Below are positions 1 to 11,611 of a stretch of DNA of 11,611 nt, piece after piece; position 1 is the stretch's first letter; each line of letters begins with the position of its first letter. Source of the DNA: Sulfurihydrogenibium sp. Lineage in GTDB: Bacteria > Aquificota > Aquificia > Aquificales > Hydrogenothermaceae. The stretch covers positions 1 through 11,611 of the forward strand of contig JBBIPN010000042.1 in the NCBI GenBank assembly GCA_037442825.1, written 5' to 3'. A program made the position numbers and the translations under genes. The notes under the pieces are model-generated. The model made no database searches. It saw only the letters and a list, made by a program, of their open reading frames with translations, and was not told the DNA's origin.

Positions 1-772
1 CTCTAACAACTGTAGTACCAACTGCTATAACTGATTTACCTTTTCTCTTTGTTTCATCCAATAAATCTAAAGTATCCTTTGAAATTAAATAGTACTCTTC
101 ATGCATTTTATGTTTTGTTATATCTTCGGTTTTTACTGGATTGAAAGTCCCAAGTCCAACATGAAGTGTTATATAACTTATATTTACACCTTTATCTTTT
201 AGTTTATTTAATAAATCTTCTGTAAAATGTAGTCCTGCTGTAGGTGATGCAACTGAACCTTCTTTTTTTGCAAATACTGTTTGATAAAAATACTTATCTT
301 TTTCTTCATCTTGTCTTTCTATATAAGGTGGAAGAGGTACATGTCCATATTTCTCTAAATCTTCTTTTATACTTTTAGAGTAAATTTTTACTAAAGCTTT
401 TTCTTCTAATCTGTCTAAAAATTCCACATAAAAATCTTCAGATATAACTATTTTTTGATACTTTCTTAATCTTCTAACATTTTTTATCAAAGCTTCCCAT
501 ATATTTTTTTCTACTTCTCTTAAAAGAAAAACCTCTATATTGGCTCCTGTACCTTCCTTTTTACCTATCAACCTGGCTGGGATTACTTTTGTATCATTTA
601 AGACTAACGTATCACCTTTATCTATATATTCAACAATATCTCTAAAAATTCTATGTTCTATAGCTTTATATTTTCTGTTTAAAACCATTAATCTACAGCT
701 ATCCCTTGGTTCTACAGGATATTTTGCTATAAGATCCTTAGGTAATTTGTAATCAAAATCTGATAGCTTCAT
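1..772 (-). CDS. queA: tRNA preQ1(34) S-adenosylmethionine ribosyltransferase-isomerase QueA (3' end runs off the window)
   Basis: Not in the ORF track; translated by hand from ATG at 772 (alternative ATG at 775): MKLSDFDYKLPKDLIAKYPVEPRDSCRLMVL...LVLNDTKVIPARL...GHVPLPPYI...GSVASPTAGLHFT...LHVGLGTF...HKMHEEYY...VIAVGTTVVR, all QueA signature motifs. The start overlaps the DUF2905 stop codon. Confidence 0.97.
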   Translation of the reverse strand, partial: MKLSDFDYKLPKDLIAKYPVEPRDSCRLMVLNRKYKAIEHRIFRDIVEYIDKGDTLVLNDTKVIPARLIGKKEGTGANIEVFLLREVEKNIWEALIKNVRRLRKYQKIVISEDFYVEFLDRLEEKALVKIYSKSIKEDLEKYGHVPLPPYIERQDEEKDKYFYQTVFAKKEGSVASPTAGLHFTEDLLNKLKDKGVNISYITLHVGLGTFNPVKTEDITKHKMHEEYYLISKDTLDLLDETKRKGKSVIAVGTTVVR

Positions 773-996
773 CATTTTGAAATTTTAGAAATTAAAAACA
801 TTAATATTGAAAGCAAAATACTTAAAATAATAGACGTAGTTAAAGGAAAATAAAAAGTAAAATTATCTTTTTTTATTAGTATATCTCCTGGTAATTTTCC
901 TAAATTTAAAGGTAATTTTTCAAAAAAAAGTAAAATCACACCAAAAACTATAATTACAAAACCTATGAATATTAAAATCTTTCCTAAACTTTCCAT
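772..996 (-). CDS. DUF2905 family small membrane protein
   Basis: 74 aa with two hydrophobic helices flanking LGKLPGDI...NFTFYFPLTTSIILS, the DUF2905 pattern. The family often lies directly upstream of queA. Confidence 0.9.
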   Translation of the reverse strand: MESLGKILIFIGFVIIVFGVILLFFEKLPLNLGKLPGDILIKKDNFTFYFPLTTSIILSILLSILMFLISKISK

Positions 997-1029
997 CTAT
1001 TACTTTTTTAAGGTTTTCTTCAATATAAT

Positions 1030-1038
1030 ATAATAGCA
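1030..1038 (-). promoter_or_regulatory. Putative extended -10 sigma70 promoter for DUF2905-queA
   Basis: Minus strand reads TG-c-TATTAT, about 35 bp upstream of the ATG at 996. The AT-rich background limits certainty. Confidence 0.4.
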
Positions 1039-1054
1039 CAAAAGTATTATTTTA

Positions 1055-1063
1055 TGGTAAAAT
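1055..1063 (+). promoter_or_regulatory. Putative extended -10 sigma70 promoter for hypothetical-ychF
   Basis: TG-g-TAAAAT upstream of RBS GAGGT (1081-1085) and ATG 1090. The same 15-mer, TATGGTAAAATTTTA, recurs upstream of the 10905 operon. Confidence 0.5.
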
Positions 1064-1089
1064 TTTAATTTAACGTTTTAGAGGTCAAA

Positions 1090-1353
1090 ATGGAAAACTT
1101 AATTTTAGCTTGTAAAGAAATTTCGGAAAAAAGTAACCATACATCATTTATACATGAAGATACAAGGGAAATATGGATATCAGGATATAAAAACGATAGA
1201 AAATTTGACTTGTTTATAAAAAAACTTCTAGATGGAACATTTAAGCTCATTTATGAAATTCCTGAAGAAAGAAAAGTTACTATTTTTTTAGATGAAGATA
1301 AATTAATTAATCGCTTAAAAAAGATATTTTTAGAGGTGGTAGAAAGTAAATGA
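1090..1353 (+). CDS. Hypothetical protein (87 aa), translationally coupled to ychF
   Basis: RBS GAGGT at 1081-1085, ATGA overlap with ychF, and the K/E-rich composition of the real genes here. No family recognised. Confidence 0.8.
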   Translation: MENLILACKEISEKSNHTSFIHEDTREIWISGYKNDRKFDLFIKKLLDGTFKLIYEIPEERKVTIFLDEDKLINRLKKIFLEVVESK

Positions 1354-2462
1354 AGATGAATGTTGGTATTGTAGGATTACCTAATGTTGGAAAATCTACT
1401 ATTTTTAACGCACTTACAGAAACAGCAAAGGCTGGTGTTGCAAACTATCCTTTCTGTACCATAGATCCAAATATTGGTATAGTAAATGTTCCAGATGAAA
1501 GATTATATAAAATAGCTGAACTTGAAAAAAGTAAAAATGTAGTTCCAGCTACAATAGAGTTTGTTGATATTGCTGGTTTAGTAAGAGGTGCAAGTAAAGG
1601 TGAAGGACTTGGTAATCAATTTTTAGCAAATATAAGACAGGTGTCTGCTATTGCTCATGTGGTTAGATGTTTTGATGACAACGATATTATTCACGTTGAA
1701 GGTTCTGTAAATCCAGTAAGAGATGCTGAAATTATAGAAACAGAACTAATCTTAGCTGACTTACAATCTATAGATAAAAGGTATGAAAGATCTTTTAAAG
1801 CAGCTAAAACAGGTAGCAAAGAAGCAAAGTTTGAAGTTCAAGTTTTAGAAAAAGCAAAAGCTATTTTAGAAGATTTAAAACCACTAAGAACAAATTTAGA
1901 TAAATTTGAAGAGGAAGAGCTAAACTGGTTAATAAAAACACTTTATCCTATAACTGTTAAACCTATGATGTACGTTGCAAACATTCCAGAAAGTGATTTA
2001 CCAGATGGGGAAGGAAATATATATTTACAGCAACTTAAAGAAAAAGCTAAAGATGAAGGAGCTCCTGTTGTAGTTTTATGTGGTAAAGTTGAGCAAGAAT
2101 TAATTGAGCTTCCAAAAGAAGAAAGAGAAGAATTTTTAAATGCACTTGGATTAAAAGAACCTGGACTCAATAAAATGATAAGGACAGGTTATGGATTACT
2201 TGATTTGATAACATACTTTACAGCAGGAGAAAAAGAAGCAAGGGCTTGGACAATAAAGAGAGGAACAAAAGCACCTGCAGCAGCTGGGGAAATACATTCA
2301 GATATCGAAAGAGGTTTTATTGCAGCTGAAGTAATAAACTATGATGATTATATAAAGATAGGAAGTTTACAAAAAGCTAAAGAACTTGGAATGGTTAGAA
2401 TAGAAGGAAAAGATTATATTGTTAAAGATGGAGATATAATGTACTTTAGATTTAATGTTTAA
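1350..2462 (+). CDS. ychF: Redox-regulated ribosome-binding ATPase YchF (Obg family)
   Basis: GIVGLPNVGKST P-loop, ANYPFCTIDPN, FVDIAGLV, GEGLGNQFL and a C-terminal TGS domain ending YFRFNV. Confidence 0.98.
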   Translation: MKMNVGIVGLPNVGKSTIFNALTETAKAGVANYPFCTIDPNIGIVNVPDERLYKIAELEKSKNVVPATIEFVDIAGLVRGASKGEGLGNQFLANIRQVSAIAHVVRCFDDNDIIHVEGSVNPVRDAEIIETELILADLQSIDKRYERSFKAAKTGSKEAKFEVQVLEKAKAILEDLKPLRTNLDKFEEEELNWLIKTLYPITVKPMMYVANIPESDLPDGEGNIYLQQLKEKAKDEGAPVVVLCGKVEQELIELPKEEREEFLNALGLKEPGLNKMIRTGYGLLDLITYFTAGEKEARAWTIKRGTKAPAAAGEIHSDIERGFIAAEVINYDDYIKIGSLQKAKELGMVRIEGKDYIVKDGDIMYFRFNV

Positions 2463-3330
2463 TTGTTTTTAAAAAAGTATAAAAATTTCTATAATCTGCT
2501 GTTAATCTAATATTTTTTTGTGTTATTACTGAAAAATTTCTATTTATCTCTAAATCTTTAACTTTTATTTCTTTTATAAGATTACATTTAAATAAATCTT
2601 CTGCTACAAGCTTTGATACAAAAGCTAAAAAATTAGAATTTTCAACTATTTTAGCAATAGACCTACTACTTGAAATTTCCATTACTGGTTTTAATTTCAA
2701 CTTTAAACGTTTTTCTACAATATTTCTCGTTCCAGATCCGATTTCGCGAAATATAAAACTGTAATTTTTTAACTCTTCAACACTTTCTAAAAAGCTAGAA
2801 ATAGGATTGTTTATAGAAGATATAAGAATAATCTCATCTTTATAAAAAGGTTCAACATCTAATTTATTTGAAAAAATATCATCTTCCACAAGACCAATAT
2901 TGAAAACTTTAGATAAAACGCCTTCTTCAACTTCCTTAGAATTTCCAATAAATAGCTTTATATTAATATCTGGATATTTTTTATTAAAAGCAGATATTAT
3001 ATAAGGTAATAGATAATCTCCTATTGTAGAACTTGCAGCTACAAGGATAGTTTTTTCTTTAGATTTTAAATTTTTTAAATGTTCTTCCATATCAATGTAG
3101 TTATCTATTATTTTATTTGCATATTCGTAAAGGATCTTCCCATCTTCCGTAAGTTCTAAATTTGACTTTTTTCTGTTAAATAATGTTATACCAAGGTAGT
3201 TTTCTATTTTTTTTATCTGTAAAGTAACTGTTGGTTGAGATAAAAATAAGACATTTGCAGCTTTTGAAAAACTTTTTAAATCTGCAACTGTTTTAAAAAT
3301 CTTTAACTTATGGTAGTCAAGAACTTCCAT
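2452..3330 (-). CDS. LysR family transcriptional regulator (CysL/YeiE-like substrate-binding domain)
   Basis: N-terminal HTH SFSKAANVLFLSQPTVTLQIKKIE plus ASSTIGDYLLP and REIGSGTR motifs. 11-bp convergent overlap with ychF and 14-bp overlap with the end of dxr. Confidence 0.95.
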   Translation of the reverse strand: MEVLDYHKLKIFKTVADLKSFSKAANVLFLSQPTVTLQIKKIENYLGITLFNRKKSNLELTEDGKILYEYANKIIDNYIDMEEHLKNLKSKEKTILVAASSTIGDYLLPYIISAFNKKYPDINIKLFIGNSKEVEEGVLSKVFNIGLVEDDIFSNKLDVEPFYKDEIILISSINNPISSFLESVEELKNYSFIFREIGSGTRNIVEKRLKLKLKPVMEISSSRSIAKIVENSNFLAFVSKLVAEDLFKCNLIKEIKVKDLEINRNFSVITQKNIRLTADYRNFYTFLKTIKH

Positions 3331-4444
3331 ATTTTTTTCCTATATGTTGTGTTAAAAATTCAACTTCTTTTATTATATTAAATATATCTTCAATACTTTC
3401 CAATTTTTTATAATCAAAACAATCTAATACATTGTTGATTATTTTATGTATATCAGTAAACTTTATTTTATTTTCTAAAAACATGTTAACAGCTATTTCA
3501 TCTGCAACTGTTAAAACTATTGGATAGTATCCACCTTTTTTACCACACTCAATTGATATTTTCAAAAGTGGAAATTTATTTAAATCTGGTTCGAAAAAAG
3601 TTATACTTTTCTGGTTTCTAAAATCAAGATAGTTATTAGATATATATCTTCTTTCTGGATAAAAAAGTGCATATGATATTGGTATTTTCATATCTGGATT
3701 AGACATATTAGATATAACTGTTCCATCTAAAAACTCTACCATACCATGTATAATGCTATCTGGATGGATAATAATATCTATCTTTTCATAAGGAAAGGAA
3801 AATAGATAATGTGCTTCAATGACTTCAAAACCTTTATTAATAAGAGTAGCACTATCTATGGTTATTTTTTTCCCCATTTTCCATTTTGGATGATTTAAAG
3901 CTTCTTCAACTGTAATACTGTCAAACTTTGATATATCTCTATTTAGAAAAGGTCCACCAGATGCAGTTAGTATTATCTTTCTAACTTCTTTAATATTACT
4001 TTCACTTAAAATTTGAAATATAGCAGAATGTTCACTATCTAATGGAAATATATTTTTATACTTTTCTTTTTCTATCTCTCCAAGACAGATTATAGCTTCT
4101 TTATTTGCTGTTGCTAATTTTTTACCGAAGTTTAAGATATAATAAGTAGGGAGAATACCTTTTATACCAGATATTGCATTTATAAATAAATCTACTTCAA
4201 CTTCTAAAACATCTTTTAAATTTTCTTCTCCTATAATAAGGTTAACATTTTCAATCTCTGATCCGTTTAAATTCTCAACATAAACATAGCTTGGTTTAAA
4301 CTCTTCTATCTGCATTAAAAGTTTATCTGATATTTTAGATGCACCTAAAAGCTCAACTTTGAGATCATTTTTATATTTTCTTACTATTTCTAACGTTTGA
4401 GAACCTACAGAACCAGTAGACCCAAGAACAGCGATTTTTTTCAA
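3317..4444 (-). CDS. dxr: 1-deoxy-D-xylulose-5-phosphate reductoisomerase
   Basis: LGSTGSVG, ANKE, DSEHSAIFQ, LTASGGPF and HPKWKMGKKITIDSATLINKGFEVIEAHYLF. TTG start with AGGAG upstream. Confidence 0.98.
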   Translation of the reverse strand: MKKIAVLGSTGSVGSQTLEIVRKYKNDLKVELLGASKISDKLLMQIEEFKPSYVYVENLNGSEIENVNLIIGEENLKDVLEVEVDLFINAISGIKGILPTYYILNFGKKLATANKEAIICLGEIEKEKYKNIFPLDSEHSAIFQILSESNIKEVRKIILTASGGPFLNRDISKFDSITVEEALNHPKWKMGKKITIDSATLINKGFEVIEAHYLFSFPYEKIDIIIHPDSIIHGMVEFLDGTVISNMSNPDMKIPISYALFYPERRYISNNYLDFRNQKSITFFEPDLNKFPLLKISIECGKKGGYYPIVLTVADEIAVNMFLENKIKFTDIHKIINNVLDCFDYKKLESIEDIFNIIKEVEFLTQHIGKKYGSS

Positions 4445-4447
4445 AGA

Positions 4448-5002
4448 TTAAATCTCTCCTAAAGATTTTACAATATGACCAAAAAATTCATTATCATCTT
4501 TTACACCAACAAATTCTACTTTGTCATTTATGACAGTTTTAGGAACAGCAGAAATATTATACTTAGTTGCTAACTCTGGAAAGGAATAACATTCAAATAT
4601 AGATACATTAATAAACTTATTAACAACTGCGAAACTAACAGCTTTTTTTATAGCAGGTGGACACCATCCACAGCTTGTTGTAACAAAAACTTTTATATCA
4701 ACTTCTTTATCAATTTCTTCAACAAACTCTAAAACCCTTTCAGAGATATAATATTCATTATTTCCAACAATACTTAATGTTTCTAAGAATGCTTGAAACT
4801 CTCCACCAGAAATATTACCAAAAAATTTTATTCCAGTGTATTCATCATTTCTGTATATTAAAATTACAGGCTTTAGATCACTAAAATTTTTAAACTCTAT
4901 TTCAACATATTTTGTATTTTCTAATATTAACTTTTTAACTTTCTCAGAAATTTCATCATCACCAAAATCACATAAAAGCTTTATTTTTTCTTTAAAGTTC
5001 AT
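4448..5002 (-). CDS. Protein disulfide oxidoreductase (PDO)/AhpF-NTD-like two-unit thioredoxin-fold protein with only the C-terminal CXXC
   Basis: FVTTSCGWCP active site, ISAVPKTVIN cis-Pro loop and GIKFFG..GGEFQAFL linker typical of PDO. RBS AAGGA at 5008-5012. Confidence 0.85.
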   Translation of the reverse strand: MNFKEKIKLLCDFGDDEISEKVKKLILENTKYVEIEFKNFSDLKPVILIYRNDEYTGIKFFGNISGGEFQAFLETLSIVGNNEYYISERVLEFVEEIDKEVDIKVFVTTSCGWCPPAIKKAVSFAVVNKFINVSIFECYSFPELATKYNISAVPKTVINDKVEFVGVKDDNEFFGHIVKSLGEI

Positions 5003-5036
5003 TTTTATCCTTTTAAATTAAATATTTTGCAAAATT

Positions 5037-5045
5037 ATTATAACA
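5037..5045 (-). promoter_or_regulatory. Extended -10 sigma70 promoter for the PDO-dxr-lysR operon
   Basis: Perfect TG-t-TATAAT on the minus strand, about 35 bp upstream of the ATG at 5002. Confidence 0.6.
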
Positions 5046-5125
5046 AATTAAAACTTTTGTTATTTCAAAAGATTCTTTTTATTTTTATTTTTCTTTATTT
5101 ACCTTTATATATAAAACTATATAAA

Positions 5126-5143
5126 TAATAAGAATAATAATAG
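5126..5143 (+). repeat. DnaA-trio array / DNA unwinding element
   Basis: TAA TAA GAA TAA TAA TAG, next to tandem boxes at 5145 (degenerate) and 5156, with a TATATATA tract further left. Confidence 0.7.
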
Positions 5144-5144
5144 A

Positions 5145-5263
5145 GGTTTAGAATTTGTTTATAACTCTTTAAAGTTTAGATTTATCAAATATTTAATAAT
5201 GTTTTTTGTCTGTTTATAACCTGTGTATATCTTGTATATAACTTTATCCTTAATTGTTGATAA
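5145..5263 (-). repeat. DnaA-box array 1 (TGT..ATAA orientation)
   Basis: GGTTTAGAA 5145, TGTTTATAA 5156, TGTTTATAA 5211, TGTGTATAT 5222, TGTATATAA 5233, TGTTGATAA 5255. All starts differ by multiples of 11. Confidence 0.75.
5183..5195 (+). promoter_or_regulatory. IHF-type binding site in oriC
   Basis: TATCAA-ATAT-TTA matches WATCAANNNNTTR exactly and lies in the box-free gap between boxes 5156 and 5211. Confidence 0.55.
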
Positions 5264-5290
5264 CTTTTAGAACTTTTAATTTTCTATAAG

Positions 5291-5354
5291 TTATGAACAA
5301 TCTATTAACATTTTGTGAACAACTTATACACAACTTTTCCACAACTTTTCAACA
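5291..5354 (+). repeat. DnaA-box array 2 (six boxes, TT..ACA orientation)
   Basis: TTATGAACA 5291, CTATTAACA 5302, TTGTGAACA 5313, TTATACACA 5324, TTTTCCACA 5335, TTTTCAACA 5346, separated by 2-bp spacers. Confidence 0.85.
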
Positions 5355-5377
5355 AACATTTAAATTGAAAATTTTTT

Positions 5378-5441
5378 TGTTGATAACTTGTTGATATAGT
5401 GTTAATAAAATGTTTATAACCTGTTGATAACTTGTTGATGG
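5378..5441 (-). repeat. DnaA-box array 3 (six boxes, TGT..ATAA orientation)
   Basis: TGTTGATAA 5378, TGTTGATAT 5389, TGTTAATAA 5400, TGTTTATAA 5411, TGTTGATAA 5422, TGTTGATGG 5433, separated by 2-bp spacers. Confidence 0.85.
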
Positions 5442-5583
5442 ATTTTGAAAAATAATTATTTATGAATAGTTTATTATTATTTTTTATTTTATAATTAGTT
5501 TGCTATTGATTATTTAATCTTAAAAATTTGAAAAAATATTTTTGATTTATTTAAATTTTTTGTAGAAGTTGTGATTTAGTTAT

Positions 5584-6858
5584 CTATCTCATAAGATAAT
5601 TTATTCTATTTTTTGCATCTTCTTCCCAGCCTCTTTTTCCATCAGAAAGCTTTAATGCAGCAACAAAGTTATTATAAGCCCTTTGTTTATCATTTATTCC
5701 TTGATAACTTACACCAAGAAAATAGTATAAATCTGAATTTGAATCTATAAGTTTTTTTGCTTTTTCTAATATTGATATACTTTCTTTATATTTACCAAGC
5801 TTTGTTAATGATGCTCCCATTATTAGTTGTGGTAAGAAGTAATTTTGGTCTAAGTTGTAAGCTTTATAGGAGTCTTCATAAGATTTATTATAGTTTTTAA
5901 GTATATAGTATACATATGCTCTGTATGTGTAAGCTAAGTTGTTTTGTGGGTATAGTTTTATAGAGGTATCTAAATTTGTGATAGCTACTGAATAGTTTTT
6001 ATTTTTTATATTTTCTTTTGCATTTTCTGTATACTTATAGCTTTCTTCTGTTTTGAGTATTTTTTGTTTTATATATTGGAATCTTTCACTATCTTTTTTT
6101 AGTAGTAATAAATTTGGATATTTAGTAGCTATTAGTTGAGATACGTTTTTTATTCTTGTTTCAGGTAATGGGTGAGTTAAAAGCCATTCTGGTGGCGCTT
6201 TATCTTTTTGCATTTTTTTGAATTTTTCAAAAGTTGATATTAAACCTCTTGGATCGTAATCTGATTGGTATGTAAATCTAATACCAAGTTCATCAGCTTC
6301 ATTTTCTTGATCTCTACTAAATTTTAGTTGTAATAAACCTGCTGAAATTTTTGCAAGTTCCATAGTTAGGTTATAATAAGATGAGTTTGCCGTTGTTATA
6401 GCTAAAATATTAAGTAGTATATTCATACCATAGGTTTTTTCTAAAAATTTTGCATGATGTCTTGCGTTGATATGTCCAAGTTCGTGGGCTAATACACCAG
6501 CAAGTTCTGATTCGTTATCTAAAGTAAGTAGTAAACCTCTATGAATAAATACAGGACCACCAGGTAAAGCAAAGGCGTTAATATCTTTTGAGTTTACTAC
6601 ATAAAATTGATAATCTACTTTTCTTGGTGTAACAGATGATAATTTATAACCTATTTCTCTTAAATACTGCTGAACTTCTTCATCTGGATATAATCCTCCA
6701 TTTTCATTTATAGCTTGTGGGACTATTTTTCTTCCTATCTCTATCTCTTGTTCTACTGATAGAAGTGTTAAAGTTTGCTTCCCTGTTAATGGATCTTGAA
6801 CTGTAGCACAAGATAATGTTAATACAAATAAAAGTAAAATACTAAATAATTTTTTCAT
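5584..6858 (-). CDS. M48 family zinc metalloprotease lipoprotein with C-terminal TPRs (BepA/YfgC-like)
   Basis: INAFALPGG, HELGH (HEXXH), FSRDQENEAD, WLLTHP and TPR-like helices. Start moved from TTG 6873 to ATG 6858, which has RBS GAGGG upstream and gives a signal peptide with lipobox (MKKLFSILLLFVLTLS-C). Confidence 0.92.
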   Translation of the reverse strand: MKKLFSILLLFVLTLSCATVQDPLTGKQTLTLLSVEQEIEIGRKIVPQAINENGGLYPDEEVQQYLREIGYKLSSVTPRKVDYQFYVVNSKDINAFALPGGPVFIHRGLLLTLDNESELAGVLAHELGHINARHHAKFLEKTYGMNILLNILAITTANSSYYNLTMELAKISAGLLQLKFSRDQENEADELGIRFTYQSDYDPRGLISTFEKFKKMQKDKAPPEWLLTHPLPETRIKNVSQLIATKYPNLLLLKKDSERFQYIKQKILKTEESYKYTENAKENIKNKNYSVAITNLDTSIKLYPQNNLAYTYRAYVYYILKNYNKSYEDSYKAYNLDQNYFLPQLIMGASLTKLGKYKESISILEKAKKLIDSNSDLYYFLGVSYQGINDKQRAYNNFVAALKLSDGKRGWEEDAKNRINYLMR

Positions 6859-6869
6859 AGTTTTTACCC

Positions 6870-8096
6870 TCAAGATTTATCAAGTAATATAAATTTTAAT
6901 TTATCCCCTTTGTTTAGTTTTTCTACATCTTTTTCAACAATTGCGAGTGCGTTTGTATTTACCATACTTGTTATTATATTTGACCCTTGTTTTCCAAATG
7001 GTTCAATATAAAAATTACCGCTTTCATAGTTTACATTTACTCTTATAAACTCTGTTCTGTCTGCATTTTTTCTACTGTAATCTTCTTTTAGTGTTCCCTC
7101 GAATATCTGATTGTATGGGTTAGTATATCCCATCATCTTTCTTAAACATGGTTTAACAAAAATTTCAAAAATAACCATACTTGCTACTGGATTTCCTGGT
7201 ATTCCAAAGAATATTTTTTCTCCTTCTTCTCCCCATGTACCAAAAGCAACTGGTTTACCTGGTTTTATAGCTACTTTCCAAAAGTGTATATTTACCTTTA
7301 ACTGTTCTACTACAAAGTCTTTTACTAAATCATACTCTCCAACTGACATACCACCCGAAGTTAAAACTACATCACAGCTTTTAGCCCATCTTAATTTTTC
7401 TCTTATATCTTCTGGATTATCTTTAGCAAATCCAATAATGACAGGTTTAGCCCCTGTTTCTAAAACTTGAGTGTAGAGTGAGTAAGTGTTTGATGTTCTT
7501 ATCTGTGATTGTTTTGTTATAGGTTCTGCAATATCAAGAATTTCATCACCTGTTGTTATAATTGCTACTTTTGGAACCTGTTTTACATATAAGTTTGGTT
7601 TATTTACAGAGGCAATTATTCCTATCTCATAGGATCTTAGTTTTTTACCTTTTTTTATTAGTATTTCTCCTGCTTTGTAATCGCCGCCTTTTGGCCTTAT
7701 ATTAGCACCTTTTTTTAGCTCTTTTAATATATAAACTGTATCACCTTCTACTTTTGTAAGTTCTTTTTGTATTACTGTATCTGCACTTTCTGGTATCAAT
7801 GCACCAGTGTATATTGGCATTCCTTGACCATTTTCAATTTTTGTTGGCATGTCACCAGCTTTACTTTCTCCTACTATCTTTAAAGGGATAGGATTATTTT
7901 CACTTGCTCCTTTTATGTCTTCATATTTTATAGCAAACCCATCCATTCCACTGTTGTCTGCTGGTGGGTTGTCTCTGTCTGCTATTATATCTTCTGCTAA
8001 AATTCTATTTAATGCATCTGTTATAAAAACTTTTTCATTTCCTAATGTTTTTGTTTTTTCTATAACTATACTTAAAGCTTTTTCATATGTTATCAT
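6870..8096 (-). CDS. moeA: Molybdopterin molybdotransferase MoeA (gephyrin-like Glp)
   Basis: PPADNSGMDGFA, TGALIP..ADTV, TTGDE, SGGMSVG.YD, IKPGKP and GIPGNPVAS. RBS AGGAGG upstream. Confidence 0.97.
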   Translation of the reverse strand: MITYEKALSIVIEKTKTLGNEKVFITDALNRILAEDIIADRDNPPADNSGMDGFAIKYEDIKGASENNPIPLKIVGESKAGDMPTKIENGQGMPIYTGALIPESADTVIQKELTKVEGDTVYILKELKKGANIRPKGGDYKAGEILIKKGKKLRSYEIGIIASVNKPNLYVKQVPKVAIITTGDEILDIAEPITKQSQIRTSNTYSLYTQVLETGAKPVIIGFAKDNPEDIREKLRWAKSCDVVLTSGGMSVGEYDLVKDFVVEQLKVNIHFWKVAIKPGKPVAFGTWGEEGEKIFFGIPGNPVASMVIFEIFVKPCLRKMMGYTNPYNQIFEGTLKEDYSRKNADRTEFIRVNVNYESGNFYIEPFGKQGSNIITSMVNTNALAIVEKDVEKLNKGDKLKFILLDKS

Positions 8097-8107
8097 CTAA
8101 AACCTCC

Positions 8108-9688
8108 TTATATTTCTTGAATTGCTATTACATCTAATCCTTTTTCTTTGTAGGATTTTATCGCTAATACAGCTGCTTTTGCTCCTCTTATAGTTGTAAA
8201 GTATGGTGTTTTTGTTGATACTGCTGCCCTTCTTATAAAGTAAGCATCAGATCTTTCTCTTTTTCCTGAAGGTGTGTTTATTACGATTGCTATCTCATTA
8301 TTTTTTATCCTATCTACTATGTTTGGTCTTTCTTCTGATAGTTTATTTACTAAAATTGTTTGTATACCATTTGATTTTAAGTAATTGTATGTACCAGTTG
8401 TAGCATATATTCTAAAACCAAGTTCTAATAAATCTTTAGCTATCTCTAATATACTTGGTTTATCTTTGTCTGCTACTGAGATAAATACATTACCTTCTTG
8501 TGGAAGTATCTGTCCTGCAGATGCTTGAGCTTTCCAAAAAGCAAGTCCAAAGTCTTTATCTATGCCCATAACTTCACCTGTGCTTTTCATCTCTGGACCA
8601 AGCAATGGGTCAACTTCTGGAAATCTATTCCAAGGAAATACGACCTCTTTAATAGCATAATAGTTGAAGTTTTTTGTATGAAAATCTGTAGCTGGATGTG
8701 ATTCTTTTATTTCAAAAACTTCTGGGACAATCTCCCTTAACTTTTTTCCTACCATTACTTTTGATGCTAATTTTGCAAGTGGATAACCTATAGCTTTACT
8801 TACAAATGGTACTGTTCTTGATGCTCTTGGATTTGCTTCTATTATGTATATTTCACCGTCTTTTATCGCATACTGTATATTTATTAATCCAATAGTATTT
8901 AAAGCTTTTGCCAGTTTTTTTGATTGCTCTTTTATTTTTATCACTATATCGTCAGGTAATGTGTAATGTGGTATACAGGTTCCGCTGTCTCCAGAGTGTA
9001 TTCCAGCCTCTTCTATATGTTCCATAACGGCGCCTACAAGTACATCTTCACCATCAGATACACAATCAACATCTACTTCTATACTACCATCTAAAAATTT
9101 ATCTATTAAAAGTGGTTTATCTTCTGTAACACTGACAGCCTCTTCTATATATCTTAAAAGTTCATCTGTATCATAAACAAGCCTCATTGCTCTTCCACCA
9201 AGTACATAAGAAGGTCTTACTAATACTGGATAACCAATTTTTTCAGCTATATTTATAGCTTCTTCTTTTGATTTTGCTATGCCACTTTCTGGTTGTTTTA
9301 ATCTAAGTCTTATAATAAGGTCTCTAAATCTTTCTCTATCTTCTGCTATGTCTATGCTTTCTGGTGAAGTTCCTAATATAGGTATATTTAAAGCTTCAAG
9401 TGGTTTTGCAAGTTTTAATGGTGTTTGTCCACCAAATTGAACAACTACACCATAAGGGTTTTCTTTCTTTATAATGTTGAGTACATCTTCAAGTACTATT
9501 GGTTCAAAATATAACTTGTCTGATGTATCATAGTCTGTAGAAACAGTTTCAGGATTACAGTTTACCATTATAGCTTTATAACCTTCTTCTCTTAATGACC
9601 AAACACAGTGTACACAAGCATAATCAAACTCAATACCTTGGCCTATTCTATTTGGTCCACTTCCAAGTATTATAACTTTCTTCTTCAT
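8108..9688 (-). CDS. carB: Carbamoyl-phosphate synthase large subunit, C-terminal half (split CarB, CarB2/CPS.B)
   Basis: Begins KKVIILGSGPNRIGQGIEFDY (second ATP-grasp unit), then NCNPETVSTDYD, RPSYVLGGRAM, GPEMKSTGEVMG and a C-terminal MGS-like domain. 526 aa with its own RBS (GGAGG). Confidence 0.96.
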   Translation of the reverse strand: MKKKVIILGSGPNRIGQGIEFDYACVHCVWSLREEGYKAIMVNCNPETVSTDYDTSDKLYFEPIVLEDVLNIIKKENPYGVVVQFGGQTPLKLAKPLEALNIPILGTSPESIDIAEDRERFRDLIIRLRLKQPESGIAKSKEEAINIAEKIGYPVLVRPSYVLGGRAMRLVYDTDELLRYIEEAVSVTEDKPLLIDKFLDGSIEVDVDCVSDGEDVLVGAVMEHIEEAGIHSGDSGTCIPHYTLPDDIVIKIKEQSKKLAKALNTIGLINIQYAIKDGEIYIIEANPRASRTVPFVSKAIGYPLAKLASKVMVGKKLREIVPEVFEIKESHPATDFHTKNFNYYAIKEVVFPWNRFPEVDPLLGPEMKSTGEVMGIDKDFGLAFWKAQASAGQILPQEGNVFISVADKDKPSILEIAKDLLELGFRIYATTGTYNYLKSNGIQTILVNKLSEERPNIVDRIKNNEIAIVINTPSGKRERSDAYFIRRAAVSTKTPYFTTIRGAKAAVLAIKSYKEKGLDVIAIQEI

Positions 9689-10248
9689 AGTTCCTCCATC
9701 TTTTTGAAATCTTCAATAAGTTCTTTCATATGTGTAAATCTATGGTTTCCTCCTGGGTACATAACTACGTGGAAACCTTTAAAATAAGCTGCTGTTTTTT
9801 TACTATCTAAAAGTTTATCTTCTTCATCAAGGTATATATACACAGTACTTTTTAATTTCTCTAAATCTTTTACATAGAAATTTTTTAAGCTTTCTAAGTT
9901 TTCTTTTAAAAAGTAATATTCTTCACCTGTTTTAAAGTTTTTTTGTGGCCCTACCTGGTTTTTTAGGGAATCATAAGGGTCTATAGAAGGATTTATAATT
10001 ACAGATTTAACATTAAACTTATCTGATAGATACAAAGCATAAAATCCACCTAAGGAGGTTCCAAAAATATAAAGTTTATCTTTTTCTTTTATAGCTTGAG
10101 TTAAAAATTCAAGTAGTTTAATAGCTTTTTCTGGGTTGTAAGGAAGTGTTGGAGTTATAACATTTTCATCACCAAAGAATTCTTTAAGATAGTTTATTTT
10201 ATCTCCATAACCTGCTGAGTTAAAACCGTGAATGTATAGTATCTTCAT
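9685..10248 (-). CDS. YqiA/YcfP (UPF0227) family alpha/beta hydrolase (esterase)
   Basis: LYIHGFNS, GTSLGG nucleophile elbow, INP and GGNHRF catalytic His. Confidence 0.92.
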   Translation of the reverse strand: MKILYIHGFNSAGYGDKINYLKEFFGDENVITPTLPYNPEKAIKLLEFLTQAIKEKDKLYIFGTSLGGFYALYLSDKFNVKSVIINPSIDPYDSLKNQVGPQKNFKTGEEYYFLKENLESLKNFYVKDLEKLKSTVYIYLDEEDKLLDSKKTAAYFKGFHVVMYPGGNHRFTHMKELIEDFKKMEEL

Positions 10249-10249
10249 T

Positions 10250-10804
10250 CTATACCTCTAAAAAATATCTTATACTTGCAACACCATAAACACCTGTATC
10301 TAGCACAGATTGAATGTTTTTTTTGTTTATTCCTCCAAGGGCATAAACAGGTATTGAAATATTATTAACAATCTCTTTTAGTTTTTCAATGCCAATAGGC
10401 GTTTGTTTACCTTCTACATAAAAGATGGGAGAGATAAAGACATAGTCTGCATTATCTTCTTGAGCTTTTAAACAACATTCTAAACTATGGCACGATTTCC
10501 CAACTATTAAATGTGGATACTTCTTTTTAACTGTATAAAGGGGAATACTTTTTTCTGGTAAATGGACACCATCTAAATTTAAAAGTAAAGCTATGTCAAC
10601 TCTTGAATTGATTATTATTTTAGCATCATAACCAGAAGATATTTTTAATACTTCTTCTGTAAGATTGAAAAGTTCATCATCTGATAAATCTTTTTCTCTT
10701 ATTTGAATGATTCTAATTCCTTTATCTAAAACTTCTTTTACAGTGTCAAAAAAAGGCCTTTTAAACGTTTTCCTATCTGTTATGAAGTAAAACCTGTGAA
10801 GCAT
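10250..10804 (-). CDS. Thiamine phosphate synthase/TenI family TIM-barrel protein (atypical active site)
   Basis: YFITD, QIREKD, INSRVDIA, GVHLP, GKSCHS and PVYALGGI identify the TMP-TENI family, but key ThiE residues differ. Confidence 0.88.
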   Translation of the reverse strand: MLHRFYFITDRKTFKRPFFDTVKEVLDKGIRIIQIREKDLSDDELFNLTEEVLKISSGYDAKIIINSRVDIALLLNLDGVHLPEKSIPLYTVKKKYPHLIVGKSCHSLECCLKAQEDNADYVFISPIFYVEGKQTPIGIEKLKEIVNNISIPVYALGGINKKNIQSVLDTGVYGVASIRYFLEV

Positions 10805-10809
10805 AAATC

Positions 10810-10905
10810 TTAATCTCTATCTAAATATACAAAAATTCCAAATAGAATAAACGTAAATATAACCATACCGAGAATAATGATAGGAAACCAAGTTCCAACG
10901 TCCAT
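10810..10905 (-). CDS. Unannotated 31-aa single-pass membrane protein
   Basis: MDVGTWFPIIILGMVIFTFILFGIFVYLDRD*. RBS GAGGT (10913-10917) is 7 nt before the ATG, an extended -10 lies upstream, and the stop is 5 bp before the thiE-like ATG. Confidence 0.75.
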   Translation of the reverse strand: MDVGTWFPIIILGMVIFTFILFGIFVYLDRD

Positions 10906-10934
10906 AAAAATTACCTCAAATAGTATTATCTAAA

Positions 10935-10943
10935 ATTTTACCA
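10935..10943 (-). promoter_or_regulatory. Putative extended -10 sigma70 promoter for the small ORF-thiE-yqiA-carB2-moeA-M48 operon
   Basis: TG-g-TAAAAT on the minus strand, about 30 bp upstream of the ATG at 10905. Confidence 0.5.
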
Positions 10944-10964
10944 TATTCTCAGATATTTAAAAAT

Positions 10965-11003
10965 TGATAAATTTTTGACCATAAGTGATAAATTTTTGAC
11001 CAT
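10965..11003. repeat. Two identical 18-bp direct repeats, each an imperfect palindrome (putative enhancer/UAS)
   Basis: TGATAAATTTTTGACCAT at 10965-10982 and 10986-11003, a 21-bp period. Confidence 0.8.
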
Positions 11004-11041
11004 TTTAAGACATCAAATATTGAAAATAAAGGCTTTTCCAA

Positions 11042-11058
11042 TTGGCACAAAAATTGAA
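11042..11058 (+). promoter_or_regulatory. Sigma-54 (RpoN) -24/-12 promoter
   Basis: TTGGCAC-AAAAA-TTGAA versus consensus YTGGCACGNNNNTTGCW. GG-N10-G spacing is correct, but -12 is GA instead of GC. Confidence 0.7.
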
Positions 11059-11098
11059 TAATAAAAGATTAGCAAATTAAATTTAAAAGGAGGTTTTC

Positions 11099-11611
11099 AT
11101 GAAAAAGAAAGTTTCAACACTAACAGCAGCAGGTTTGTTTTCTCTGCTTATGGTCTCAGGAGGTCAGGAAGCTCAAGCGGTAAAACTACAAGATGCTAAC
11201 ATTGATTTTGGCATCCAGTACAGAGTAATGTATAACAACTCTAGCATTGCATCACAAAACAGTTACGACTTCTTTAGACAAAGATTAAGATTTAATTTTG
11301 ATGTAAAGTCTGAAAGTGGTGTAGGTGGATTCGTTCAACTTGAATACAGAGGAGGATGGGGTGGTGCATCACCTGATGCATCTGATTCAAGAGATGCATA
11401 TGCAGCAAGTGCATTTAACCGTCTACAAGCGAGGGGTGTAAGGTATGGATATCTCTACTTCCCAGCTGGTCCAGGAACAGTACTTGCTGGTATTCTTCCA
11501 GCTAATGATGAAGTAGATCAAATGCTATTTTCTGCAGATTGGGATTTAAATATAGGTGGTATCGCATATGCTGGAAAAGTGGGAGAAGTTGGTTTTAGAA
11601 CTGCTTATGTT
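11099..11611 (+). CDS. Outer-membrane beta-barrel/porin-like protein (3' end runs off the window)
   Basis: Not in the ORF track. 171 open codons after RBS AAGGAGG: MKKKVSTLTAAGLFSLLMVSGGQEAQA/VKLQDANIDFGIQYRVMYNN...DFFRQRLRFNFDVKSESGVGGFVQLEYRGGWGG...VRYGYLYF. Signal peptide with an AQA cleavage site, followed by amphipathic aromatic-rich beta-strands. Confidence 0.8.
   Translation, partial: MKKKVSTLTAAGLFSLLMVSGGQEAQAVKLQDANIDFGIQYRVMYNNSSIASQNSYDFFRQRLRFNFDVKSESGVGGFVQLEYRGGWGGASPDASDSRDAYAASAFNRLQARGVRYGYLYFPAGPGTVLAGILPANDEVDQMLFSADWDLNIGGIAYAGKVGEVGFRTAYV

Follow-up and report, generated by a model that had tools for sequence, protein, structure and literature searches.

A predicted chromosomal replication origin away from dnaA in Sulfurihydrogenibium, with DnaA boxes that vary together with a DNA-reading residue of DnaA

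The intergenic region and its flanking genes

The window analyzed here is the whole stretch of 11,611 nt, i.e., contig C42 of the source assembly G000 (1.35 Mb, 137 contigs, 29% GC, rated 99% complete); a separately assembled contig (run X1, possibly from the same source sample) covers positions 96–11611 gap-free. An intergenic region of 581 bp with 17% GC is located at 5003–5583, between a gene for a protein disulfide oxidoreductase (PDO) and an M48 protease gene. Both neighbors had been named in the original prediction and were borne out by a protein profile scan, in which none of the 12 window proteins scanned was DnaA, DnaN, GyrB or GidA, as had also been stated. The region had further been described as the only large noncoding gap. 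It is the largest, but 776–1089 and 10805–11098 are without a listed ORF as well; these two lie between divergent genes (queA / small ORF-ychF and thiE / porin-like gene, respectively) and are probably promoter regions. No Rfam family matched within the window, so a non-coding RNA is unsupported. As a minor observation, carB at 8108–9688 covers the large subunit of carbamoyl-phosphate synthase in its C-terminal half only (profile positions 551–1052); split carB is known in Aquificae. The following features were assigned:

3317–4444: dxr, next after the PDO gene (TIGR00243, above cut-off)
4448–5002, minus strand: PDO homolog (NCBIfam TIGR02187, E 1.5e-38, below cut-off)
5064–5119, no strand: AT-rich tract, predicted duplex-unwinding region (5064–5143 is 89% AT)
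5120–5143, plus strand: DnaA-trio tract made up of eight trinucleotides that all have a central A; read from the box-proximal end, 3'-GAT AAT AAT AAG AAT AAT-5'
5145–5153, minus strand: degenerate second box TTCTAAACC with 4 mismatches, in the position equivalent to B. subtilis box 7
5156–5164, minus strand: trio-proximal DnaA box TTATAAACA, equivalent to R1 / box 6, 12 nt from the trios
5183–5195, plus strand: IHF-consensus site and predicted bending site, an exact WATCAANNNNTTR match within the 46 bp that separate box 5156 from array A
5211–5263, minus strand: array A, boxes at 5211, 5222, 5233 and 5255 on an 11-bp lattice common with box 5156
5291–5354, plus strand: array B, six boxes with an 11-bp period, oriented opposite to A, and a weak seventh at 5280
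5378–5441, minus strand: array C, six boxes with an 11-bp period and a weak seventh at 5444
5584–6873, minus strand: M48/BepA-like protease gene with TPR repeats, whose 3' end closes the region

Phased DnaA boxes and a predicted unwinding module

About 18 DnaA-box-like 9-mers had been reported for the region, and it does hold 18 matches to TTWTNCACA with at most one mismatch, two of them exact (5324 and 5335). Four of the 18, at 5025, 5026, 5527 and 5314 (overlapping 5313), are not lattice boxes. Allowing two mismatches, TTATCCACA matched 16 times, against a mean of 2.4 and a maximum of 7 in 1000 dinucleotide shuffles of the region, and no exact TTATCCACA was found in it. The 11-bp phasing, absent from the original prediction, is reported here: eight same-strand box pairs are spaced 11 bp apart (shuffle maximum 1), and a phased two-box pattern matched 11 times in the window, each time inside the region (0.20 in shuffles). 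Arrays B and C together form a 62-nt inverted repeat with 73% identity.

The trinucleotide- and AT-rich tract of the original prediction was confirmed as well and adjoins the boxes, so that the AT-rich unwinding region expected next to the boxes of an oriC is predicted directly beside the trios. The rule published for the basal unwinding system (BUS; PMC8287927) calls for a box with at most 2 mismatches, optionally a second box with at most 4, a spacer of at most 16 nt and at least three NAN trios; the region has boxes with 2 and 4 mismatches, a 12-nt spacer and 8 trios. Compared by eye, the first 18 nt of the trio tract are the same as the trio tract predicted for the Aquifex aeolicus oriC in Table S1 of that study. 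A genome-wide search for a box followed by trios gave four loose matches in G000, among which only the module described here has a regular trio tract.

Uniqueness in the genome and separation from dnaA

A genome scan for other clusters of the same motif, proposed along with the original prediction, found no second cluster of this kind in the draft assembly G000. It is the top 300-bp window under all five box definitions (e.g., 16 boxes versus 8 in the next best), and it holds 8 phased pairs per 300 bp, while the next nine windows of the 1.35 Mb have at most 8 boxes and no phased pair. In G000, dnaA is located on C56, dnaN on C101 and gidA on C6, and no 300-bp stretch of the dnaA locus exceeds 4 boxes. 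An origin beside dnaA was considered and rejected, since none of 29 dnaA loci with flanks of about 1.5 kb has a cluster or exceeds 6 boxes per 300 bp. The complete relatives have the cluster at 153 kb and dnaA at 698 kb in G004, at 494 and 1 kb in G005, at 7 and 868 kb in G010 and at 1612 and 887 kb in G049. The original prediction spoke of an unusual gene context. The origin does lie away from dnaA, but this is not unusual: in the family (probably Hydrogenothermaceae), origins as a rule lie apart from dnaA, dnaN and gidA, and the module is never beside dnaA in the relatives.

Chromosome-partitioning genes and sites were also inspected. As a position marker, parS was uninformative, the best matches in five genomes having at least 2 mismatches. 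No parB match was found in G000, G004 and G005 (E at most 1e-10); in G010 and G049, parB is present but distant from the origin. In G009 (L102:1830–2856), a ParA/Soj-like gene and a small partner adjoin the trio side of the origin.

Conservation of the module and of an IHF-type site

In 17 of 19 genomes (G000 and 18 others of the family), there is a single cluster in which the order of arrays, gap, box, trios and AT tract and the spacing are conserved; in the drafts G006 (82% complete) and G017 no cluster was found. The equivalent of the AT tract has an AT content of 78–97% in these 17 origins. According to the script's list, a box starts 20–25 nt before the trios in 13 of them and 12–15 nt before in three, and G014 has a two-mismatch box there. 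A box-trio pattern search of 50 family genomes led to 19 further loci being examined. Of these, eight, with 9–17 boxes, plus the locus in G044 add nine more family genomes with clusters of 8–17 boxes; the remaining 11, with 3–6 boxes only, were dropped as chance or contig-edge matches. No cluster was found in the stretches from the other two families of the order (G019, G021). Homologs of PDO and dxr flank the trio, or unwinding, side in all eight genus members that have the cluster and in G014, and the far side is variable; the M48 protease is not a conserved neighbor, with a homolog in G007 only among the far-side neighbors listed. Nearly all boxes of the G012 origin (L098:3378–3657) share one orientation.

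The IHF consensus named in the original prediction stands out in the same comparison. Consensus matches occur at 0.16 per kb across G000. Between −72 and −30 before the trios, 6 of the 17 origins have an exact match (0.14 expected from shuffles) and 13 have one with at most one mismatch (2.5 expected), although these counts come from related genomes and are not independent. The site is listed at −51 to −56 from the trios in 11 origins, in a single orientation throughout. G000 codes for HU copies and for one IHF-alpha-like and one IHF-beta-like protein, the latter two (genes at C22:4895–5182 and C36:10236–10484) below the NCBIfam cut-offs. In the 300 contigs of G016, HU but no IHF-like gene was found, and yet its origin has an exact IHF site; in G012 (99% complete) there is no IHF-like paralog and a single HU-family gene. 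Since IHF is described as restricted to three other phyla, i.e., Aquificota are reported without IHF, and HU can bind the same gap (PMC10325909), the bending protein may be either, and we are evenly divided on whether it is a true IHF. The positional conservation of an IHF-type site, as judged from consensus matches, in a phylum reported without IHF is a new point.

Box sequence and residue 433 of DnaA within the family

In an alignment to B. subtilis DnaA, Asn423 of the G000 protein takes the position of E. coli Asp433 and B. subtilis Asp413. The residues given for reading of the canonical TTATCCACA (PMC2533591, PMC7561715), R399, P423, D433, H434, T435 and H439, are K, S, N, H, S and S in G000. 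Thus, the region and the G000 DnaA depart from the canonical pair of box and domain IV, as the exact box is absent from the region and all of these residues but H434 are changed. The 3' end of dnaA and the downstream gene are present twice in this assembly (C87:1–1300 and C56, 97% identity), probably due to strain variation; the C87 copy also has Asn.

Among 45 family DnaAs read, the position is Asn in 6, His in 4 and Asp in 35. The six Asn genomes, all within the genus, have TTATCAACA-type boxes, and outside the genus boxes are mostly exact TTATCCACA. Using a motif with positions 5 and 6 free, and leaving G016 (His), G044, G009 and G052 out of the totals, C5C6 was found in 1/88 boxes and A6 in 60/88 boxes of the six Asn genomes; the corresponding numbers for 16 Asp genomes are 195/224 and 8/224. 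G003, G004 and G008 have C6 in 0/38 boxes. G002, an Asp member of the same genus with similar GC at the locus, has eight exact TTATCCACA. G005 (Asp) is intermediate, with C6 in 12/17 and C5C6 in 5/17 boxes; the distal array of its origin (L091:2605–2923) is degenerate at position 5 (TTAATCACA, TTATTCACA, TTATACACA), unlike that of its close relative G002, and possibly represents a transitional state. His at the Asp433 position was seen in genus g9 (dnaA of G016, G059, G060 and G061; L062, L429–L431). The G016 origin (L103:3000–3330) has TTATGCACA boxes near the trios and a short TGTCATTTTAA-like tandem repeat between arrays; in G059 and G061, TTATCCACA adjoins the trios.

The six Asn genomes also share Arg399Lys and Thr435Ser. 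In a tree of DnaA domains I–III, G000 and G007 group with Asp species (95/88). Nevertheless, a single Asn clade was not rejected, either with these domains (p-AU 0.069) or with PDO and dxr (p-AU 0.177), and Asn therefore arose in one or two events.

A preference of Asp for cytosine and of Asn for adenine is textbook chemistry. Asp433 would read the C5–C6 step; with Asn, the preference for C5–C6 would be lost, A favored at position 6 and any base accepted at position 5, and with such a change in recognition the origin would read TTATNAACA. In PMC8235120, Asp433 is called highly conserved and is assigned to position 7, not 6; the contacted base is taken from a secondary passage. A literature search for Asp433, D433N or His434, or for TTATCAACA with DnaA, gave no report of such a link, most subscription papers lying outside the search; the supplements of bioRxiv 10.1101/2022.08.09.503306 may list motifs for the group. 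That the boxes and the changed DnaA residue go together in the Asn genomes, as observed at the level of aligned sequences, is new, with partial support from other phyla.

Residue 433 and the box base in other phyla

When the genome collection was scanned for pairs of phased TTATCAACA boxes, at least 120 loci came up. DnaA was read for 35 of these, 20 from the same locus (dnaA-adjacent) and 15 hand-picked for A-rich or trio-bearing clusters; not all of the clusters are established origins. The dnaA-adjacent loci have Asp in 18 cases, His in one and Asn in one, and this sole Asn case (L378, Lachnospiraceae) has A6 in 11/12 boxes. The hand-picked clusters go with Asn in six cases, Ser in two and Asp in seven. 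Five of these Asp clusters have no C5C6 box at all, which means that Asn is not required for A-boxes. With the selected box pair left out, C5C6 occurs in 1/85 boxes with Asn or Ser versus 44/155 with Asp, a contrast inflated by the hand-picking, as is the Mann-Whitney p of 0.0015. Arg399 is kept in 8 of 9 Asn/Ser proteins and Thr435 in four, and four Poribacteria-like DnaAs have Asn433 with both residues intact, which points to residue 433 itself. The two Ser loci (L377, L372; small-genome bacteria) carry nearly pure TTATCAACA clusters (A6 13/14 and 9/9) away from dnaA. In two Kiritimatiellae-related genomes, the phased TTATCAACA pair is found at many places (L307, L313, L320, L325, L342, L343, L309, L328, L381) and is a dispersed repeat rather than an origin.

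These data have to be weighed against a reading in which the region is an oriC, but the C-to-A shift is AT-biased drift under a relaxed DnaA, with Asn433 either a passenger or contributing on a par with Lys399 and Ser435. Drift would account for the degenerate position 5 of the G000 boxes (A 6, C 6, G 2, T 3) and for the genome-wide ratio of TTATCAACA to TTATCCACA of 77 to 8; it is also helped by the mere one or two events in the family and by the A-rich clusters of Asp433 genomes. However, the equally AT-rich Asp relatives G002 and G012 retain C5C6, and the complete lack of C6 in the 38 boxes of G003, G004 and G008 is more suggestive of selection favoring A than of relaxation. As for the other residues, Ser435 alone leaves the boxes unshifted (G010, G018, G044), and Asn433 accompanies avoidance of C5C6 also when combined with Arg399 and Thr435. 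We therefore regard drift as rather unlikely and consider it fairly probable that residue 433 causes the box shift. The furthest-reaching version, namely that Asp433-to-Asn alone rewrites the box code from C6 to A6 within one Aquificota genus and again in clostridia and Poribacteria, that the origins are bent by genuine IHF, and that the database origins for the genus are misplaced, could in our view fall either way.

Strand asymmetry and the role of the region

The GC skew of the 11,611-nt window alone was discarded, as the window is too short and confounded by genes. Read depth of the assembled contigs is flat and gives no coverage gradient. Skew was instead sampled in 20-kb windows of complete relatives (G004 and G005, n = 40 each; G010, n = 20; G049, n = 13), with permutation tests that ignore autocorrelation. 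In G004, the G+T excess at fourfold-degenerate sites, after correction for gene strand, has its best switch at 142–152 kb, close to the cluster position of 153 kb (sign agreement 30/40, permutation p 0.0008; GC skew p 0.006), and dnaA at 698 kb has a negative score in this test. G005 gave p 0.011 for GC skew, 0.031 for gene strand and 0.50 for fourfold sites, with the best switches 50–180 kb from the cluster. G049 is borderline (p 0.056, 13 windows), and G010 has no two-replichore signal (p 0.14–0.41, 20 windows). Hence, a skew switch at the origin, suggested as a check in the original prediction, was seen in G004, only weakly in G005 and G049, and not in G010; support from strand asymmetry is real but uneven. 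In G010 (C1, L171–L190), the fourfold G+T excess is positive on the plus strand in 16 of 20 windows around the whole chromosome; this may stem from large inversions, a problem of the assembly or an artifact of the baseline.

Could the region be a datA- or DARS-like site for DnaA titration or nucleotide exchange, or a DnaA-controlled regulatory region, with the true origin elsewhere? datA and DARS2 likewise pair DnaA boxes with IHF binding (PMC10325909), the skew misses the cluster in G010 and partly in G005, and G000 is a draft of 137 contigs, so that another origin could be unassembled. Such a site, however, would be a box cluster lacking an unwinding module, beside a separate oriC. What was found is an oriented box-trios-AT module with fixed spacing in 17 origins, which is an unwinding feature, and no second cluster turned up in G000, near dnaA or, using phased-pattern searches, in the complete relatives. 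Promoter-like sites in the region are at chance level (5 versus 7.2 expected), without enrichment of promoters or terminators, which argues against a regulatory region. We consider this explanation quite improbable. A third one takes the 11-bp repeats as Rep-bound iterons from a plasmid or phage origin that became integrated; head-to-tail repeats at the helical period beside an AT tract and IHF site are typical there too. It is largely refuted by conservation (one copy per genome across genera, the repeats being exact TTATCCACA in Asp433 genomes); housekeeping genes flank the region on both sides, and none of the 12 scanned proteins is a Rep or the product of a mobile gene. We give it a very slim chance.

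The original reading as a chromosomal origin is thus supported by uniqueness in the genome, the full module of box, spacer, trios and AT tract, one copy per relative, the lack of a cluster near the dnaA genes and the switch in G004. On these sequence features, we hold with high confidence that the region is the chromosomal oriC of G000. It is very likely the single DnaA-dependent oriC, with binding sites that likely co-evolved with the changed DNA-reading helix of DnaA. In such an origin, an IHF-like or HU protein would bend the 46 bp from box 5156 to array A. Starting at box 5156, DnaA would load onto the plus-strand trios and open the AT tract toward the PDO gene, where the helicase would be loaded.

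Comparison with known origins and published predictions

An oriC separate from dnaA and species-specific boxes are already known, and the mechanism proposed for the region is an ordinary one. With the B. subtilis BUS (boxes 6/7 together with DnaA-trios; PMC8287927, PMC6669920, PMC10721633), as described in these sources, it shares the co-oriented box, the degenerate second box, the 12-nt spacer (reported peak 10–13), trios that begin with 3'-GAT-5', and helically phased distal boxes (55 bp). Unlike the BUS, it lies outside the dnaA-dnaN gap, has no exact TTATCCACA, and possesses three long phased arrays and an IHF-consensus site. The E. coli oriC (DUE, R1, IHF-binding region, R5M array, opposed right array; PMC10325909) is likewise unlinked from dnaA and has the same sequence of proximal box, bending-site gap, co-oriented array and opposed array; in G000, too, the stretch from the proximal box to array A contains an IHF consensus. 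Differences are the 46-bp gap instead of a 35-bp IHF region, the third array, the strong trios, Asn in place of Asp433, and a location not next to gidA, which is on another contig. Lineage-specific consensus boxes at oriC are described for cyanobacteria (TTTTCCACA), H. pylori (TCATTCACA), actinomycetes (TTGTCCACA) and T. maritima (a 12-mer) (PMC4285127, Ori-Finder 2022), and the region is similar in this respect. However, the 9-mer variants listed there retain C at position 6, whereas here position 6 varies inside one genus, together with a residue called highly conserved (PMC8235120).

Sister species with Asp or Asn at a base-reading position make the code between initiator and origin testable by a single substitution, and the residues of domain IV could serve to choose the box that origin-finding software searches for. 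A conserved IHF-type site in Aquificota bears on the age of origin opening by bending and recruitment; if the furthest-reaching version is true, IHF-dependent initiation extends to a phylum reported without IHF, and database origins for the genus are misplaced owing to their reliance on the E. coli box.

Table S1 of PMC8287927, based on DoriC 6.5 predictions, lists at least seven Aquificae rows; the modules of Persephonella marina and A. aeolicus are strong, those of two Sulfurihydrogenibium weak. These listed entries make no mention of TTATCAACA boxes or of the Asn change. The two Sulfurihydrogenibium entries have 3–4 trios, lie near the record start, score 7 and 10 versus 17 and 19, and are unlike the family module. 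Judged by their module, both published picks are probably wrong, and the original expectation that neighbor-based annotation would miss the origin looks right, as these picks are without the module. The box-box-trio motif given for P. marina in the same table recurs in several family genomes.
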